A DNA stretch of 64,000 nucleotides from Pseudomonadota bacterium (lineage in GTDB: Bacteria > Desulfobacterota > SM23-61), in NCBI GenBank assembly GCA_018819135.1, contig JAHJQK010000075.1, forward strand, positions 236 to 64,235, read 5' to 3'. Position 1 is the first letter of the stretch. Every line of letters begins with the position of its first letter. A program made the translations under genes and the position numbers. Positions 1 to 6,426 of this stretch are shown here, piece after piece. The notes under the pieces are model-generated. The model had not been told where the DNA came from, ran no database searches, and saw nothing but the letters and a program-made list of their open reading frames with translations.

Positions 1-105
1 CGCGCTGCGCGCGCCCGAACGGCGAGTTGCGCGGAGCGCCTCGCCCGATTTGTCCGACCGCGCGCTGATTCGCGCGGCCGAACAAAATCGTTCGAGCCGT
101 TAGCC
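1..105 (+). other. 3' portion of a long attC-type recombination site (window begins inside it); R' core GTTAGCC at 99-105
   Basis: 1-99 is 98/99 identical to 4321-4419, and its last ~48 nt recur at 2638-2685. The three copies diverge immediately after ...GCCGTT, the G|TT crossover position of a GTTRRRY-like core. Confidence 0.7.
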
Positions 106-124
106 GTAAGGATGAGGAACTACA

Positions 125-1102
125 ATGAAGAAAGCTGTTTTTATATCATCAACCTTTGAGGATCTGAAGAATCACAGACGTAAAATATGGGACCTCCTGG
201 AAAAATTCCATGTTGACGTCCGTGGTATGGAGCGATTTGGAGCACGGAAAGAGGCTCCGCTAATAACATGCCTTAGTGAGGTCGAACAATGTGATATTTT
301 TGTTGGCATACTCGCCTTCCGTCTAGGTAGTATCGATGAAGATTCAGGCAAATCCTTTACCCAAAGAGAGTATGAAAGGGCCTATGAGCTAAATCGTGAG
401 ATTCTCATATATATGATTGATGAAAAGGATTCACTGATTTCGCCTCAGAATATTGACTTTGATGAAAAACGGGAAAGGCTCATAGCTTTTAAATCAATTC
501 TCAGGGATAGGCACACGGTTGACTTTTTCCTGTCCGAGGATGACTTAGCAGAAAAACTGAAGAGAAAGTTCGATGAGCTTCTCGCATCAAAAGAACTTAG
601 GGAGGACACCTCCACCGACGAATACGGGAATTCTAAAGAAATCATTGGAAAATTTCTGCTGCTTCCGAAAGTCTATTCAGGTCGGGTGGTCAAGCTGAAG
701 GTAGACTTCGTGGGTAATGCTTTCCCAGCTTCAAAATCCCTGTGCTCGAACTTCAATCTCGAATACGGCAAAACGATCGGGGTTAAAGTCAAAATCAAGG
801 CGCCATTGCTTGAGGATGATGCGATCGAGTATGTCTTTGTCGATCAAGGTAACTTAAATGATTTCTTTTCACTGCGACACCGAAAGGAAATAGAAGTCTA
901 TGGGAAGCTTCAGTTTTCGGAAAACAAAATCGAGGAGTTGAAAGCCAATTTTGTAAGGAAGGAATATTATGTTGGAGGAGTCGCTTCTCTATCCCTAAAT
1001 CTGATGGATGCCGAAACCAAAAGAAGCCTGTTTGGAGAGAGGAGAATTGTTGAGGCAGACGGGAGAGTCATCATAAAGCTTACCAAGATCATGGCCACAT
1101 GA
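125..1102 (+). CDS. DUF4062-domain protein (TIR-like / deoxyribosyltransferase-like N-terminal fold) with an uncharacterised C-terminal half; cassette 1
   Basis: 325-aa ORF with an AGGATGAGG SD-like run upstream. The N-terminus (KAVFISSTFEDLKNHR...CDIFVGILAFRLGS...SFTQREYERAY...ILIYMID) fits the DUF4062 pattern from memory. Residues ~165-325 match nothing I recognise. Confidence 0.75.
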   Translation: MKKAVFISSTFEDLKNHRRKIWDLLEKFHVDVRGMERFGARKEAPLITCLSEVEQCDIFVGILAFRLGSIDEDSGKSFTQREYERAYELNREILIYMIDEKDSLISPQNIDFDEKRERLIAFKSILRDRHTVDFFLSEDDLAEKLKRKFDELLASKELREDTSTDEYGNSKEIIGKFLLLPKVYSGRVVKLKVDFVGNAFPASKSLCSNFNLEYGKTIGVKVKIKAPLLEDDAIEYVFVDQGNLNDFFSLRHRKEIEVYGKLQFSENKIEELKANFVRKEYYVGGVASLSLNLMDAETKRSLFGERRIVEADGRVIIKLTKIMAT

Positions 1103-1285
1103 ATTCAAACCCACTACGCCCAACGGCACAAACGGAGGGCTCAAACCCTGACGGCTTCGTCTGTACCGCGCACGTTGCTTGTCTGTCCATTGCGGGCAAA
1201 AAGCAAAAGTAGAATGGCGCCCATTAAATTATGAAATCCTGGAAAAGACGTAAGGTTAAGGACGCAGGAAATTGAACAAAAACTC

Positions 1286-1348
1286 GCCTAACCAGGCGGT
1301 CCACCGGATCGCCGATAAATCCGGCTCCCGGTGACCTTTTTGTTCGAC
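1286..1348 (+). other. attC site (63 nt) closing cassette 1
   Basis: GCCTAAC(R'')-CAGGC-GGTCCACCGG ... CCGGTGACC-TTTTT-GTTCGAC(R'). Geometry is 7-5-L''...L'-5-7, with one unpaired C in top-strand L''. The R'' is a canonical RYYYAAC. Confidence 0.75.
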
Positions 1349-1401
1349 CGCTAACGCAAGACCGGAAAAAAACTTCCGGAATCCAATGATGTGAGGCTGC
1401 A

Positions 1402-2523
1402 ATGCATGGTCCCTACTTCGAAGGCCAACAGCCGAGTGCATGCGGGCACTACTACCCGGATGTCCAGAGATTGCGCGACGAACGCCGTAAAGACGGTTCG
1501 CTCGTTAGATTAATTCAATGTCGGTGGTGTGGCAGAAGCGAACGCGTTATCGACCCTGAACAGTTTAATCCCGATGGTGTTACAGAACTGTCAGAAAAGG
1601 GAGTAAGTCTTCGGTTGGACGAAGAGACTTGGTTAGAGTCAAGTGAAGATGTGAGCGGAATGAATGCACTTGCGGCATTCAATCTCTCGATCCTTGCGAA
1701 CTTCGCCGAGGTATTGCCATTCGTCGTACCGCCCGGTGACAAAAACCGCGACCCACAACCTGGATATGCATTGCTCATGCGTACCCTGGAACTTTTCATC
1801 ATCCAGGTCTTTGCGTCGCTCGATTTGCCCACCATTCCGAAGAGCCGAAGTGCACATGACCTGCTTCACGAAATGGCTGAGCACAAAGCTCTTCCGCCGA
1901 AGCTCCTTGAAGAAATGTCTGAATTGATGGAAAAAAGGGGACTATTCATCCACGCGCTGGAGTCAAGCGTAACACTGAGAATGCTACGTCATGATGCCAT
2001 CCGCGTCGCTCGAATCATCTCATGGTACACGTTCGAATTCGAACGTGCCCACCGAGTCATGCATTTGGACGTACCACAACGAAGTGTCCCGCAGGCGTTC
2101 GATGCACACGGATCGCGCAAACTCTTTCTATGTTACGCGCGCGAAGACGTCGAACGCGCCTTGCACCTTTACAGAATACTGAAGAAACGCGGACATAAAC
2201 CATGGATGGACAAGAAGGACCTGCTTCCCGGTCAAAATTGGGAGCACGAAATCGAAAAAGCGATTCGTGAATCCGCCTTTTTCATCGCCTGCCTTTCACC
2301 GGCCAGCGTCAGCAAAAGGGGGTTCGTCCAAAAGGAGGTCCGCTACGCTCTGCGGGTATTAGACGAGATTCCGCAGAATCAAATATTCATCATTCCAGTC
2401 ATGTTGGAACCATGCAATCCACCGGATCATCTCAGGTCGTTGCAATGGATAACAATTGAGAGTCGTGAGGGCCTTGATAAAATGTTCCGAGCAATTGAAG
2501 GTGTCGATGGGACATCGAATTAA
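1402..2523 (+). CDS. TIR-domain protein with N-terminal Cys/His cluster and a helical HEPN-like (DUF4145-like) middle region; cassette 2
   Basis: 373 aa, GTGAGG SD 5 nt upstream. The C-terminus (KLFLCYAREDVERA...WMDKKDLLPGQNW...AFFIACLSPASVSKRGFVQKEVRYAL) is TIR-like. The middle has RGLFIH (Rx4H). The N-terminus has CGH...CRWCG. Confidence 0.8.
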   Translation: MHGPYFEGQQPSACGHYYPDVQRLRDERRKDGSLVRLIQCRWCGRSERVIDPEQFNPDGVTELSEKGVSLRLDEETWLESSEDVSGMNALAAFNLSILANFAEVLPFVVPPGDKNRDPQPGYALLMRTLELFIIQVFASLDLPTIPKSRSAHDLLHEMAEHKALPPKLLEEMSELMEKRGLFIHALESSVTLRMLRHDAIRVARIISWYTFEFERAHRVMHLDVPQRSVPQAFDAHGSRKLFLCYAREDVERALHLYRILKKRGHKPWMDKKDLLPGQNWEHEIEKAIRESAFFIACLSPASVSKRGFVQKEVRYALRVLDEIPQNQIFIIPVMLEPCNPPDHLRSLQWITIESREGLDKMFRAIEGVDGTSN

Positions 2524-2553
2524 AGGCATCCGACATTAACTTTAATCAGCGCG

Positions 2554-2691
2554 GTCGAACAAAGCGTTGCACCGGAGCGGCGGGCAGCGCATCTTCTGAG
2601 AATGGAAGTCGTTCGCCGCCGCCCGGTGAAATTATTCGTTCGGCCGCGCGCTGATTCGCGCGGCCGAACAAAATCGTTCGAGCCGTTGGAC
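2554..2691 (+). other. long composite attC-type site closing cassette 2 (R'' GTCGAAC 2554-2560; R' GTTGGAC 2685-2691; inner R'-like GTTCGGC 2638-2644)
   Basis: R'' is the exact complement of cassette 2's first bases (G|TTCGAC at 1342-1348). There is a long imperfect palindrome CACCGGAGCGGCGGGC...GCCGCCGCCCGGTG. The 3' 48 nt are shared with 52-99 and 4372-4419. Confidence 0.65.
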
Positions 2692-2698
2692 ATAACAT

Positions 2699-4242
2699 AT
2701 GAAAATTAAAAAAGAGTCAATTAAATGGGCATTAAAATCTCTTGAAAATTTAGGAGATAGCGACCTGTTTGCCCGACCTTTCGAACTTTCAATCATCCAA
2801 GATTTAGGTGATATCGCCGTTTCGGAATTAGCCTCCTTGGATTTATCTTCTTTTGGCTACGGTCCTTCTCGCAGATTCATTGTTCCAAAAGATGACCTAT
2901 CATATCGCACGGCATCCCAATTAGATCCTCTAAACAGTGTGCTACTAACAACGTTAATTTATGAATATGGGCATCTAATTGAAGCCAAAAGGAGGTCAAA
3001 AGAAGAAAAAAAGTTTTTAGTTATCGTTTTGCTCCGGATACCGACGGACAACTCTATGATTCCGCTAATTCATGGAATGATTTTTGGAGGACTTGCTACG
3101 AAGTCTCCCAAAAGTATAATTACGTTGTAATTCTAGATATAGCTGATTTTTATAACCAAATTTATCATCACGCCCTTGAAAACCAACTAATAGATGCTGG
3201 GTTACCAAATCAGGCGCTGAAGTGGATTATTGGACTATGCAGCGCTCTATCAGCAAAAGTCTCCCGAGGTGTACCAGTTGGGCCTCATGCTTCTCACATT
3301 CTCGCTGAGGCAGTCTTGTCGCCTGTAGATAACGTTCTATCTCATCAGGGAATAAATTTTTGTAGGTATGTTGATGATATCGTTCTTTTCGCCGAATCAG
3401 AGATAGAAGCACGATCTCTCATTTTAACGCTCGCAAACACTCTTGACAAACAGCAAAAGTTGCTGATCCAAAGACATAAAACCCAATTAATGGATCGTGA
3501 TAAATTTCGAAAGTTTTGCCTCGAAATGATAGAAGATAGACCCATAGACGATCTTGAAAGGGATCTAGTTTTAATCATTCAAAAACACTCTCATGGTAAC
3601 CCTTATAGAATAGTCTGGATAAGCGAATTGTCTGACGACGAGCTTTCGAAATTTAGACCTGATGTAATTGAAAAGATTGTTACAGATTATTTAGAGAAGC
3701 CAGAACCAGATTATATAAGGTTGAGATGGTTTATAAGAAGGTTAGCTCAAATTGGTCACCCGGCAGGCATTAATATATTTCTTCGCGAGTTTTCAAGACT
3801 TTTGCCAGCCTTGAGTGAAATTTGCCGCTATTTTCTGGCTGTAAGTCAGGTGACTGATCTCGATTGGGAAAATATTGGTCAAGATCTGTTAACTTTCTTC
3901 GAGAATAAAATAATTAAATCAAATGAATATTACCAACTCTCTATTTTATCTCTATTTGCAAGTCAGCAAAAATTTGACAATTTACCGAGTATAATAAAAC
4001 TTTATCAAAATGCGTCGCCGTATTTGAGGAGAGAAATTATTATTTGCGCAGCAAAACATAATGCGACTGATTGGATCAGAGAGCTAAAAGAAACTTTCCC
4101 AACTATGGATCCCTGGAATCGTAGAGCCTTTATCTATGCATCATCAATTTTCCCTGCAGAAGAAAGAAAATTCTTCTTAAAAAATATTCAAGGCAATGAT
4201 TTATTGGAGGAATTAATTATCAAATGGATTAAATCGGAATAA
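2699..4242 (+). CDS. reverse transcriptase of the defence-associated UG/Abi type with a long alpha-helical C-terminal region; reading frame broken once (frame 2 to frame 1) at the A7 run 3006-3012; cassette 3
   Basis: Track ORFs 2699-3130 and 3316-4242 are joined by open frame 1 from 2983. RT motifs seen: RRFIVPKDDLSYR, ILDIADFYNQIYHH, GVPVGPHASHILAE, FCRYVDDIVLF (YVDD). One extra A would restore a ~514-aa protein. Confidence 0.8.
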
Positions 4243-4245
4243 ATT

Positions 4246-4425
4246 GTCCAACAATCGGCTGAAGATGGACTGGCAAATGAGCGCAGCGGATTTGCTAGCC
4301 ACTTAGCCGAAGCGTTCGGTCGCGCTGCGCGCGCCCGAACGGCGAGTTGCGCGGAGCGCCTCGCCCGATTTGTCCGGCCGCGCGCTGATTCGCGCGGCCG
4401 AACAAAATCGTTCGAGCCGTTGGGC
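4246..4425 (+). other. long composite attC-type site closing cassette 3 (R'' GTCCAAC 4246-4252; R' GTTGGGC 4419-4425)
   Basis: R'' is the exact complement of cassette 3's first bases (G|TTGGAC at 2685-2691). Contains the 99-nt block also present at 1-99 and the hairpin GTCCGGCCGCGCG-CTGATT-CGCGCGGCCGAAC. Confidence 0.65.
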
Positions 4426-4437
4426 AGAGGAGAAGGC

Positions 4438-4905
4438 ATGAAGACCCTGTTTGAAGTTTGTGTCAAGCAGATGAACGAAGACAACAGCCGCTTCTGGACC
4501 GTCTTTCACGTTTTTACGTTGATGAACGGGGGACTGCTCGCCTTGTCTGCCTCAAGCAGCACCAACCCGGAGGTGAAACTTGGCATAGCTATTGTCGCGG
4601 GACTCATCTGTGTGCTCTGGCGACAGATACAAGCAAGGATGGGTTTCTGGTCCCGACGGTGGGAAGAGGATGCTGAGCGCATTGAGGAACTTTATGTCGC
4701 TGACGTTAACGAGGAACGTCAGCGGAACAACCTTCCCCCTCTACCGAATACGGCGAAGGTTTTTCTTGGGCGCAAGCCGAAAACGAGAGGCAAAGGAGAG
4801 AAACGGTGGCCTGGCATGTCCACAAGGAATGCAGGGACGTATCTCCCACTTTTGTTCTTGCTTGCTTGGGTGCTGTTCTTCGGGGCAACGCTTCGGGGTC
4901 TATGA
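4438..4905 (+). CDS. small predicted membrane protein (about 3 TM segments), no recognised family; cassette 4
   Basis: ATG at 4438 preceded by GAGGAGAAGG. Hydrophobic stretches: FWTVFHVFTLMNGGLLALSA, LGIAIVAGLICVLW, YLPLLFLLAWVLFFGATL. The track start at 4420 is the TTG of the R' box and is unlikely to be the real start. Confidence 0.6.
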   Translation: MKTLFEVCVKQMNEDNSRFWTVFHVFTLMNGGLLALSASSSTNPEVKLGIAIVAGLICVLWRQIQARMGFWSRRWEEDAERIEELYVADVNEERQRNNLPPLPNTAKVFLGRKPKTRGKGEKRWPGMSTRNAGTYLPLLFLLAWVLFFGATLRGL

Positions 4906-4949
4906 ATCTCGGGGGCGCCACGCGTGGAGCCGGTCCAGCAGCAGGCTCT

Positions 4950-5008
4950 GCCCAACACGCCGCTCCAGCCGACGCGGTAGTCCGCGCGGCTGAGCGGCAA
5001 CGTTGGGC
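4950..5008 (+). other. canonical attC site (59 nt) closing cassette 4
   Basis: GCCCAAC-ACGCC-GCTCCAG-CCGACGCGGTAGTCCGCGCGG-CTGAGCG-GCAAC-GTTGGGC. R''/R' match 7/7 and fit RYYYAAC/GTTRRRY exactly. One unpaired C in top-strand L''. R'' complements cassette 4's first bases (4419-4425). Confidence 0.85.
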
Positions 5009-5463
5009 ATGAGATAGATCATGTCGATATCTGACAAGACAAGAAAATGGCGTGAAGCGGGACGCCCTTAAATAATTCAATTTCTGGCTTTTGTGGTTTA
5101 TAATGCTACCTCCAGGGAGAGGTTTATAGATTCTTCCCCGAAGTAGAACCATGATTTTTTATTTCACCATCCCCAATATCGCTCCACCAACCTTCTGGAG
5201 CCGATAACTCGCTTCAGCCGGTAATCCTTCAAACTGCGCCGCCCTTGTATAAGCATTCACGACATGGAACATAGTATTTCCCGCTTCTTAATTCCATTCC
5301 CATTCAACCGCTTCCCTTTCCTTTTCCCCAAGCTGGAATTGCCGGTTGAAGTTTTTAAAGAACTCCGCATCCAGATGACACTGAACCTGGGTATCAAGGC
5401 CATATCCAGCGGGTTGTACTGGGGGGCATATAGGAAGCAGGCGATCTAGACCCTTGCGATCTT

Positions 5464-5916
5464 TCACTGCAGGAAATCATCAAGAACCAGAATGGTTATT
5501 CCTTCAGCCCGGAGAGTACGCAGACGGGCATCATTGGTTATAAAAGCATCTGCCTTTTCAATTATTGACGTAGCCATCAGGAGGGCATCCGGAGTTCGGA
5601 TTCTATATTTAGAACGAAGGCGCGCGGCTTCCCTGGCGATGAGGTAATCCGGAGATTTTAGTTCCGTATTTGGTAGGGAGAAAAGAAAGCGTTCAAAAGC
5701 CGCGATTCGGTCCTGCTGGCCAGCGGTAAACGGTTGGACCAAAAGCTCGGTCACGGAAACTGTAGATAATACTGCGATCAAAGAACCTTCGGCAACCGCT
5801 GCAAAAATATTTTCCGTCAAATTCGCATACGGCTCCAGATCTTCGAGGTGATAAATCAGAAGGGAACTATCTAATCCTACTTTCTTCAGCTTTTTTAATT
5901 CATTCTGAAATGCCAT
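5464..5916 (-). CDS. vapC: PIN-domain toxin (VapC family)
   Basis: 150 aa. Has VGLDSSLLIYHLED ... TVSVTELL ... ITNDARL acidic PIN signature positions. Sits 4 nt downstream of the AbrB-type antitoxin gene. Confidence 0.8.
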   Translation of the reverse strand: MAFQNELKKLKKVGLDSSLLIYHLEDLEPYANLTENIFAAVAEGSLIAVLSTVSVTELLVQPFTAGQQDRIAAFERFLFSLPNTELKSPDYLIAREAARLRSKYRIRTPDALLMATSIIEKADAFITNDARLRTLRAEGITILVLDDFLQ

Positions 5917-5920
5917 GATC

Positions 5921-6172
5921 CTATGCCCACGACCGGCGTTCCTTCTCGAGATACCGTTCCACTGCCTTTCGATCTTTTCCCCATGTCCCCTTCATCAGGC
6001 CCCGGGTCGTCTTGGCATATTCCCGCGGGCGTGTTAAAACAACCTTTCCAGATTCGAAAGTAACGAGGAGTTCTTCTCCTTCCTTCACCCCTAAGGCTTC
6101 CCTCATTTCCTTGGGAATCACAAATTGCCCTTTTTTGCTTATTCTTACCGCCTTTATAATATTCATACTCAA
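5921..6172 (-). CDS. vapB: AbrB/SpoVT-family antitoxin (VapB-type)
   Basis: 83 aa. AVRISKKGQFVIPKEMREALGVKEGEELLV is a typical SpoVT/AbrB swapped-hairpin motif. Forms an operon with vapC. Confidence 0.75.
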   Translation of the reverse strand: MSMNIIKAVRISKKGQFVIPKEMREALGVKEGEELLVTFESGKVVLTRPREYAKTTRGLMKGTWGKDRKAVERYLEKERRSWA

Positions 6173-6177
6173 TCCTC

Positions 6178-6426
6178 CTAAGTCATATTATAAATAAAAT
6201 GGTAAGAAAATTGCAAGAGTAAATTGGGAATGGGACTATGGAACTTTGTATTTGGTATTATGTCCCCGGAATACCCGAGAATATTGACATCGTGAACTTT
6301 GCCATGAGTTATGCGGATAAAACAGGGAATGCTTCCCCGCAAATCCATGAGGGTATGGACCTTGACAGCCCCTTTGTGTTTGCGAAAATGGGCCCAGGGA
6401 AACAGGGTGAGGTATCTTTCCGTCAT
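6178..6426 (-). pseudogene. fragment of an IS4/IS5-type DDE transposase
   Basis: FPWAHFRKHKGAVKVHTLMDLRGSIPCFIRITHGKVHDVNIL is the start of a DDE_Tnp_4-like catalytic domain. Only ~60 informative residues remain; no N-terminus or rest of the DDE triad. Confidence 0.6.

Follow-up and report, generated by a model that had tools for sequence, protein, structure and literature searches.

A Predicted Zinc-Ribbon-Like/HEPN/TIR Protein from the Integron Cassette Array of a Thermodesulfobacteriota Bacterium, Uncultured and of Groundwater Origin

Described Systems and the Protein under Study

The protein discussed here has a partial counterpart in RAZR (ring-activated zinc-finger RNase; PD-T7-4), a protein that joins a zinc finger to a DUF4145 domain (Nature 2026, PMC13017515). 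In RAZR, the zinc finger binds ring assemblies of phages, and assembly into higher-order oligomers activates the HEPN RNase (R146, H154) (PMC13017515). Fusions of DUF4145 to a 'Zinc Ribbon' and to 'TIR and ATPase (Thiorhodococcus drewsii)' are recorded in Table 1 of the survey by Anantharaman et al. (2013), in which the Rx4-6H motif of DUF4145 is described as 'mostly conserved (80%)' (PMC3710099). Here, we describe a gene located at positions 1402 to 2523 of a 64,000-nucleotide (nt) stretch of contig JAHJQK010000075.1, hereafter the window, whose 373-amino-acid (aa) product combines a zinc-ribbon-like N-terminal head, a DUF4145-type HEPN domain and a C-terminal TIR domain. The DNA stems from an uncultured groundwater Thermodesulfobacteriota bacterium, the AtpD protein of which is 96% identical to those of named metagenome-assembled genomes.

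We favour, with moderate confidence, a reading in which this protein is a stand-alone defence protein of the abortive-infection type that is carried by an integron cassette, with the HEPN domain serving mainly as a scaffold and the TIR domain as the NADase effector. Defence systems of compact size are known to be stored in integron cassettes (bioRxiv 10.1101/2024.07.02.601686).

The Gene, Its Start Codon and Its Relatives

The open reading frame (ORF) at 1402–2523 (forward strand) is complete and starts with ATG; the ORF listing, Pfam matches and an ortholog identify it as a real gene for a well-supported three-domain protein. The ortholog (P0002), found in two other metagenome assemblies, also comprises 373 aa and is 80% identical over its full length. 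A codon-by-codon comparison of the two genes yielded a ratio of nonsynonymous to synonymous substitution rates (dN/dS) of 0.14 overall. Constraint is strongest of all segments in aa 1–55 (0.057), is substantial in the HEPN region (0.116) and the TIR domain (0.135), and is weakest in the linker formed by aa 56–95 (0.40). Given these low segment values, the zinc-ribbon-like head, the HEPN domain and the TIR domain all belong to a selected protein, and a pseudogene or chance ORF is ruled out by the dN/dS values, the TIR_2 match described below and the 80% identical ortholog. The linker (1567–1686, forward strand) is acidic and poorly ordered, with a predicted local distance difference test score (pLDDT) below 50 for aa 60–90.

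In the database version of the protein (P0001; 350 aa), translation starts with TTG at codon 24, and half of the Cys/His cluster of the head is thereby cut off. We regard ATG 1402 as the true start, since codons 1–23 alone are under purifying selection (dN/dS 0.058) and since a GAGG Shine-Dalgarno element read from the sequence (1393–1396, forward strand) is found 5 nt upstream of it. An earlier annotation made from the letters of the DNA, termed here the sequence-only reading, had quoted a series of peptide strings, all of which are present in the translation: C14-G-H16, C40-R-W-C43-G, R179-G-L-F-I-H184, FLCYAREDVE (aa 242–251) and FIACLSPASVSKRGFVQKEVRYAL (aa 294–317).

Eleven proteins of about 280 aa (P0003–P0013), each consisting of a helical domain and a TIR domain, align with aa 95–373 of the window protein. 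Proteins in which this HEPN domain is combined with a TIR domain are rare; they form about 30 clusters at 50% identity among 1.84 billion representatives. As judged from the sequence alignments, the window protein and its ortholog constitute a separate three-domain subclade. A scan of the GTDB species genomes revealed a single clear HEPN+TIR locus (L005, Ignavibacteriota); in the remaining 44 loci, similarity is confined mainly or entirely to the TIR domain.

The TIR Domain

The TIR domain (aa 239–360; 2116–2481, forward strand) belongs to the SPARTA-like NADase type according to Pfam, PADLOC and Foldseek. The Pfam family TIR_2 (PF13676) matches aa 242–354 with an E-value of 1.7e-29 and a score of 103.2 bits (cut-off 28). 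The Glu of the WxxxE motif occupies the catalytic position of TIR NADases, both in SARM1 and in bacterial TIR proteins. Its candidate counterpart in the window protein is Glu312 (codon 2335–2337, forward strand), which stands in the segment K-R-G-F-V-Q-K-E and is invariant in 13 of 13 relatives. When the family profile was aligned to PDB sequences, F308-x3-E312 was superposed on the W-x3-E of the Paracoccus protein PdTIR ('WPQKEL'; 3h16), and the C-terminal TIR domain with its catalytic Glu, as proposed by the sequence-only reading, has thus held up. This alignment required the family profile; a phmmer search with the TIR domain alone against the PDB returned nothing at E ≤ 1e-3. From its sequence, the TIR domain is likely to possess NADase activity.

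Among the PADLOC models, those of short-pAgo TIRs fit best (E 7.6e-18), with only profile positions 5–119 of 430 covered, and the best structural matches found by Foldseek are the TIR-APAZ chains of SPARTA (E 6e-7, 23–28% identity). NCBIfam yields weak, partial TIR matches only. The weak matches to ThsB/Thoeris-type models that also exist might be taken to indicate a signal-generating TIR domain that, like ThsB, supplies a separately encoded effector with a nucleotide second messenger. They are, however, far weaker than those to the SPARTA type (E about 4e-5 versus 8e-18). Furthermore, neither the neighbours scanned in the window nor the contig gene lists of the relatives include a partner of the ThsA, SIR2, Macro or SLOG type, and the single-gene cassette described below speaks for an autonomous protein. 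We therefore regard such a signalling function as highly improbable.

The DUF4145-Type HEPN Domain

The middle region of the protein (aa ~96–215; 1687–2046, forward strand) is assigned to the DUF4145 type of HEPN domains, via transitive homology only, on the basis of the family alignment, the Pfam matches of relatives, Foldseek and pLDDT. The window protein itself has no Pfam match outside the TIR domain, DUF4145 and HEPN families included, even at E ≤ 10. In contrast, its relative P0013 scores above the Pfam gathering threshold for DUF4145 (25.0 versus 23.1 bits), P0003 reaches 19.6 bits, and P0004 weakly matches the HepT-like family. A HEPN-only profile retrieved 61 proteins at E ≤ 1e-3 from the 1.84 billion cluster representatives. 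When the window HEPN segment and 57 matches of this profile were scanned with Pfam, DUF4145 was found in 25 of the 58 sequences (best E 1.6e-17) and TIR_2 in 17, while others are STAND-like proteins with AAA_16, TPR or WD40 domains.

The AlphaFold2 model of aa 1–238 has pLDDT values of 80–92 over helices 119–139, 151–160, 166–184 and 192–221. All of its best 22 matches in a Foldseek search of the PDB are HEPN proteins, including HepT SO_3166, MntA-HepT, YutE, an Aphanizomenon HEPN toxin and AF_0298 (5yep_C, 6m6w, 1ylm, 7ae6, 2hsb). Their probabilities range from 0.82 to 1.0 and their TM-scores on the target (TMt) reach 0.65, with modest E-values that start at 4.8e-3 (5yep_C, probability 1.0). 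Only the search by fold was successful here; a sequence search with the HEPN profile against PDB chains gave nothing significant. The resemblance of the middle region to DUF4145-type HEPN domains that the sequence-only reading noted is supported, with the Pfam check that it proposed succeeding for relatives and failing for the window protein itself.

The string R179-G-L-F-I-H184 (1936–1953, forward strand) lies in helix 166–184 and fits the Rx4-6H pattern of HEPN domains. By our estimate, about one in four proteins of comparable length would contain an Rx4H string by chance. In the window protein, RGLFIH aligns exactly with the conserved RNxxxH column of the family, which in a wider profile aligns with the catalytic R-N-x-x-x-H of HepT. 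Among the 13 closest relatives, H184 does not vary and R179 hardly does, and in the wider set the conservation of H184 is still at least 90%; P165 and W208 are, like H184, invariant among close relatives. The Arg and His of RGLFIH, on which the sequence-only reading depended, are thus conserved among these relatives. The RNxxxH motif is found in 24 of the 30 HEPN+TIR relatives, in agreement with the 80% motif conservation given in PMC3710099. Distant DUF4145 proteins exhibit the pattern RxxGNxxxH, and N-x3-H, which is common to both patterns, is consequently the most conserved element. It is the Asn residue of this element, exceeded in conservation only by the His, that the subclade lacks: the window protein keeps Arg and His and has Gly in place of Asn, and in the KRLFSH motif of the ortholog the Arg is shifted by one position and the Asn is lost.

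These findings bear on the proposal of the sequence-only reading that two chemistries, RNase and NADase, are united in one polypeptide. A dual effector, in which R179/H184 of the HEPN domain would cleave RNA and E312 of the TIR domain NAD+, with both activities firing together upon activation, would be in keeping with the presence of both Arg and His, with the alignment of R179 and H184 to the catalytic motif of the family, with the purifying selection acting on the HEPN domain (dN/dS 0.116) and with the intact RNxxxH motif of the 24 relatives. The same type of HEPN domain is, moreover, the N-terminal effector of STAND-like (AAA_16/TPR/WD40) proteins and of PDC-M16A, and the DUF4145 domain of RAZR is a proven RNase (PMC13017515). 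The Asn replaced by Gly in the window protein is, however, near-universal both in the family and in DUF4145 proteins at large, and the ortholog additionally lacks the canonical Arg; both changes suggest relaxed catalytic selection in exactly this subclade. Since the motif is eroded in this manner, RNase activity of the window protein is doubtful and the claim of two chemistries uncertain, and we consider a dual effector to be possible yet improbable. We read the motif changes as those of a HEPN domain whose fold and interfaces are probably maintained while selection on its catalysis has been relaxed.

The Zinc-Ribbon-Like Head

The N-terminal 55 residues (1402–1566, forward strand) are predicted to form a zinc-ribbon-like domain with C14, H16, C40 and C43 as candidate ligands, an assignment based on the modelled sheet, the evolutionary constraint and weak Foldseek matches. 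AlphaFold2 models a three-stranded antiparallel β-sheet (aa 21–28, 34–40, 46–50; pLDDT ~65) in which C40-x2-C43 is located at the β2–β3 turn, and all four candidate ligands are kept in the ortholog. When compared with viral predicted structures by Foldseek, the head gives short and weak, yet consistent, matches to small zinc-ribbon proteins (probability 0.94–1.0, E 0.02–0.4), including MqsA-like and NrdR-N-like proteins, with probabilities of 0.94–0.96, and a 74-aa haloviral protein (root-mean-square deviation 1.9 Å over 52 columns). The protein has no Pfam zinc-ribbon match at E ≤ 10, and the head is known in two sequences only, those of the window protein and its ortholog. A search with the N-terminal 95 aa detected no relatives, a negative result that is weak since even the ortholog was left unscored. 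A zinc ribbon with a CHCC ligand set is the best reading of the model and a plausible identity for the Cys/His cluster that the sequence-only reading had pointed out. As the head is the most strongly constrained segment, is unique to the subclade and stands before the DUF4145 domain as the zinc finger of RAZR does, it would be the sensor of the protein.

The viral entry A0A482IIS2 of BFVD (310 aa) matches the model of aa 1–238 over 234 columns (E 4.7e-4, probability 1.0). This protein may be encoded by a phage and may resemble the window protein in its layout of head and HEPN domain.

The Integron Cassette

The TIR gene sits in an integron cassette array. Repeat copies are present at positions 1–109, 2634–2695 and 4321–4429; they have a common 62-nt core with 90% identity, and those at 1–101 and 4321–4421 are 99% identical over 101 nt. 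A 28-nt core of the repeat occurs three times in the window, where no occurrence would be expected. The copies end in GTTRRRY-like cores (GTTAGCC, GTTGGAC, GTTGGGC), 8–20 nt upstream of the start codons of the co-oriented genes that follow (those for a DUF4062 protein, Drt8 and an 8xMP protein), while RYYYAAC-like cores are found a few nt past the preceding stop codon (ATCCGAC at 2529, GTCCAAC at 4246).

Downstream of the TIR gene, the attC-type repeat (2528–2691) starts 5 nt past the stop codon with ATCCGAC and ends with GTTGGAC 8 nt before the Drt8 start codon (folding z-score −3.4). The sequence downstream of the ortholog is weakly similar and begins with ATCCAAC. Upstream of the TIR gene, the attC-type repeat (1286–1355) belongs to a second family, with GCCTAAC as its R'' element, a hairpin core at 1300–1334 (folding z-score −2.4) and an apparently degenerate 3' core, which reads GCTAACG in the window versus GTTAAAA in the ortholog. 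The 5' untranslated regions of the two genes are homologous (score 33 versus 15.6 ± 3.4 for shuffled sequences). With its upstream 3' core degenerate, the TIR cassette may now be locked to that of the DUF4062 gene. An attC site between positions 1114 and 1263 was considered and ruled out (folding z-score −0.24). The other sites of the left-end array are an attC-like repeat at 4246–4425 and, after the 8xMP gene, a textbook 60-nt attC hairpin (GCCCAAC...GTTGGGC; 4949–5008) with a folding z-score of −7.9.

A 24-mer of the repeat occurs 89 times over 78 metagenome contigs and the window (86 + 3). Its copies are co-oriented, 0.9–2.9 kb apart, often located at contig ends and usually positioned between co-oriented ORFs. 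The window contains no intI gene. On one of the metagenome contigs (L126), however, a divergent ORF is matched by TIGR02249, the model for integron integrases, with 415.7 bits (cut-off 265), and the distance between this ORF and the start of the repeat is about 160 nt; another contig (L076) carries a partial IntI. The integrase on L126 (9088–10680) comprises 443 aa, is extended at its N-terminus by about 100 aa compared with IntI1, and adjoins, without an intervening ORF, a repeat whose three-hairpin architecture is unusual for attC. Since this integrase gene adjoins the repeat directly, and since joints between 102/103 and 4312 (run X1) place repeats back-to-back, ORF-less units exist.

The window is present in groundwater metagenomes, and the depth of their contigs is about 600 over the repeats versus about 20 over the genes. 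Likewise, the repeat at 1300–1334, between the DUF4062 and TIR genes, has a depth of about 128 versus about 20 for single-copy sequence, and loose contig ends occur there, with ..CTAAC.. before the core and ..GTTAGCC.. behind it. Contigs join the cassette boundaries in other orders as well (102/103 to 4312 and 2690 to 4313 in run X1, and 1334 to 4311), and one contig spans exactly positions 1305–2672, the TIR cassette. Together, the attC-type repeats, the depth, the alternative joints and this contig define the TIR gene as a single-gene cassette of about 1.35 kb.

As toxin-antitoxin cassettes occur in sedentary integrons, the question arises whether the protein, instead of sensing phage, is an addiction toxin that stabilises the array, its constitutive HEPN/TIR toxicity being checked by an unrecognised antitoxin or by a lack of expression. 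A PIN/AbrB pair is encoded 3 kb away, and the closest fold matches of the middle domain are HEPN toxins, which are classic toxins of toxin-antitoxin systems. The cassette of about 1.35 kb contains, however, neither an antitoxin-sized ORF nor an MNT gene, the neighbour of the ortholog differs, and a sensor function would account better for the additional N-terminal domain and its high constraint; we judge this explanation to be very unlikely.

The upstream gene of the ortholog encodes an HTH_17 protein and thus differs from that of the window, and the neighbours of other family members vary (another TIR protein, Abi_C, a restriction endonuclease fragment). A conserved operon partner was rejected, as the DUF4062 gene is absent beside the ortholog and a high-copy attC-type repeat separates the DUF4062 and TIR genes in the window. 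Carriage on cassettes as a trait of the entire HEPN-TIR family was likewise rejected, as no attC-like repeats are present in L003, L128, L129 and L130. Short HEPN-TIR relatives do have other genes of defence type as neighbours: in L003 (10976–12208), the neighbour is another TIR protein, of 410 aa, and genes for an N6_N4 methylase and a DUF87 ATPase are close by, while in L128 (1351–2166) it is an Abi_C protein (AbiJ-type HEPN).

A Proposed Mode of Action

Known HEPN proteins are obligately dimeric. In the mode of action that we favour, the zinc-ribbon-like head would sense the trigger, as the zinc finger does in RAZR, and the HEPN domain would mainly provide the scaffold of a dimer or oligomer. 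Binding of the trigger would rearrange this oligomer such that the TIR domains pack head-to-tail and create composite NADase sites around Glu312, and the ensuing depletion of NAD+ would cause the infected cell to stop growing or to die. Residual RNA cleavage by R179/H184 might occur, yet would not be the main effector activity in this subclade. We infer sensing, oligomerisation and NADase output by analogy with RAZR, HepT and SPARTA. The autonomy of the cassette is shown by its single gene, by the different upstream neighbour of the ortholog and by the varied neighbours of relatives. The context is one of defence: neighbouring cassettes encode Drt8 and the DUF4062 protein, and the PIN/AbrB pair is nearby.

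A more specific variant, which we consider tentative and rather doubtful, is a rewired sensor of the RAZR type. Here, the target of the head would be a multimeric structure of the phage, for instance a portal-like ring. A HEPN domain that is now non-catalytic would serve purely as a curvature-sensitive scaffold of oligomerisation, and its geometry would be read out by the packing of TIR domains into an NADase filament. If true, this would represent natural effector swapping on a sensor of supramolecular assemblies and the exaptation of a HEPN RNase domain into a structural adaptor.

Several points weigh against the reading of the protein as a zinc-ribbon-triggered TIR NADase on a HEPN scaffold. 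Its role in defence is deduced from the domains and the neighbourhood only. The window protein retains both R179 and H184, and its HEPN domain is, with the dN/dS of 0.116 given above, still constrained. The inter-domain geometry of the model is of low confidence (predicted TM-score 0.40), and C14 and H16 are located in a low-confidence loop (pLDDT < 50). The zinc ribbon itself, derived from two sequences and a model of medium confidence, is unproven.

If the favoured model holds, the 373-aa single-gene cassette would be a tractable case of a zinc-ribbon/HEPN front end coupled to a TIR NADase and a test of whether HEPN domains can lose catalysis and yet survive as oligomerisation scaffolds. It would also bear on how environmental integron cassettes outside Vibrio are stocked with streamlined defence genes.

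Neighbouring Genes in the Window

Positions 1–5010 of the window represent the left-end part of an integron-type cassette array, and the contig starts inside a repeat. Directly upstream of the TIR gene, a separate cassette carries the gene for the DUF4062 protein (125–1102; 325 aa), which has an N-terminal DUF4062 domain with a TIR-like fold (E 4.7e-24); its C-terminal ~230 aa are without a family match, and the protein is matched neither by PADLOC nor by NCBIfam. Downstream, a defence reverse transcriptase of the Drt8 type (2699–4242) is split into two ORFs (2699–3130 and 3316–4242) by a single frameshift at an A-run, placed by eye around 3020–3035 with approximate run length and position. 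No indel is seen at this site in the contigs of three groundwater runs that are independent of one another; since the runs agree, the frameshift is real, and the split gene is either a pseudogene or contains a slippery site. The next gene encodes a member of the 8xMP family of octameric membrane proteins (4438–4905; Pfam E 1.4e-14), the likely start of which is ATG 4438 and not TTG 4420. None of the 127 loci that were fetched contains a homolog of the DUF4062 protein, of Drt8 or of the 8xMP protein.

Further downstream, the reverse strand carries a toxin-antitoxin-like pair, made up of an ORF for a PIN/VapC-like protein (5464–5916; 150 aa), called by eye and without a family match, and a gene for an AbrB/SpoVT-type antitoxin (5921–6172; TIGR01439, E 1.2e-12). 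Beyond the pair is an 82-aa ORF (6178–6426) that by eye resembles a transposase fragment. The ORF that follows (1063 aa) looks by eye like an AcrB-type efflux pump. The region 5464–6426 and the efflux-like ORF probably mark the end of the cassette array.

Comparison with Known Systems

With RAZR, the first two thirds of the window protein share the succession of a small N-terminal zinc-ribbon-type domain, a linker and a DUF4145-type HEPN domain, and RAZR is a single-protein abortive-infection system, as we propose for the window protein. Unlike RAZR, which has no TIR domain, the window protein continues with a TIR region of 135 aa. The two proteins also differ in their zinc ligands (Cys4 in RAZR versus the candidate C-H-C-C set) and in their catalytic pair: R146/H154 of RAZR have the RxxGNxxxH spacing of distant DUF4145 proteins, whereas the window protein has Rx4H without the Asn. 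The PADLOC model of PD-T7-4 is matched by five of the 58 members of the HEPN set, all of them distant (best E 1.2e-7); it gives no match to the window protein at E ≤ 1 and none to its 12 closest relatives at E ≤ 0.01. Membership in RAZR was rejected on the grounds of this missing profile match, the different ligands and motif spacing, and the absence of RAZR from the PDB fold matches.

The middle domain finds its best fold matches in the HepT/MntA toxins (SO_3166, 5yep; 6m6w), with a probability of 1.0 and TMt values of 0.6–0.65. In contrast to these systems, however, no MNT antitoxin gene is present in the window, the identity is only about 12%, and the Asn of the motif is lacking. The TIR domain is closest, by PADLOC profile and by structure, to that of the TIR-APAZ proteins of SPARTA, which are associated with short pAgo proteins and share the catalytic Glu. 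SPARTA TIR-APAZ is an oligomerisation-activated NADase. The window protein, unlike SPARTA, lacks APAZ, and no Argonaute-like match was found among the neighbouring genes scanned; hence, activation would have to come from a different sensor than in SPARTA.

The short HEPN-TIR family (P0003–P0013 and L005) is homologous to the window protein in both domains (33–37% identity over aa ~95–373), with the same domain order and the invariant residues P165, H184, W208 and E312. It differs in that its members are devoid of the 95-aa zinc-ribbon-like head, keep RNxxxH, and are encoded at loci without attC repeats. The window protein is too divergent for the direct PF13643 match that characterises DUF4145 members. 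Moreover, the DUF4145-TIR fusion listed in 2013 includes an ATPase, and a polypeptide made of zinc ribbon, DUF4145 and TIR is not listed there (PMC3710099).

The sequence-only reading did not recognise this fusion as a named system. PADLOC and NCBIfam indeed detect the TIR part only and return no named system, and a full-text literature search for 'HEPN-TIR' and 'TIR-HEPN' found no paper. The novelty is, however, narrower than that reading implied, as DUF4145 fusions to TIR and to a zinc ribbon were already listed in 2013 (PMC3710099) and the zinc finger plus DUF4145 part has now been characterised as RAZR (PMC13017515). In our view, the window protein reveals no new biochemical principle. It adds a rare family, of which current defence-system profile libraries detect the TIR domain only, to the defence catalogue, and it is a new combination of known defence parts and not a new kind of system.

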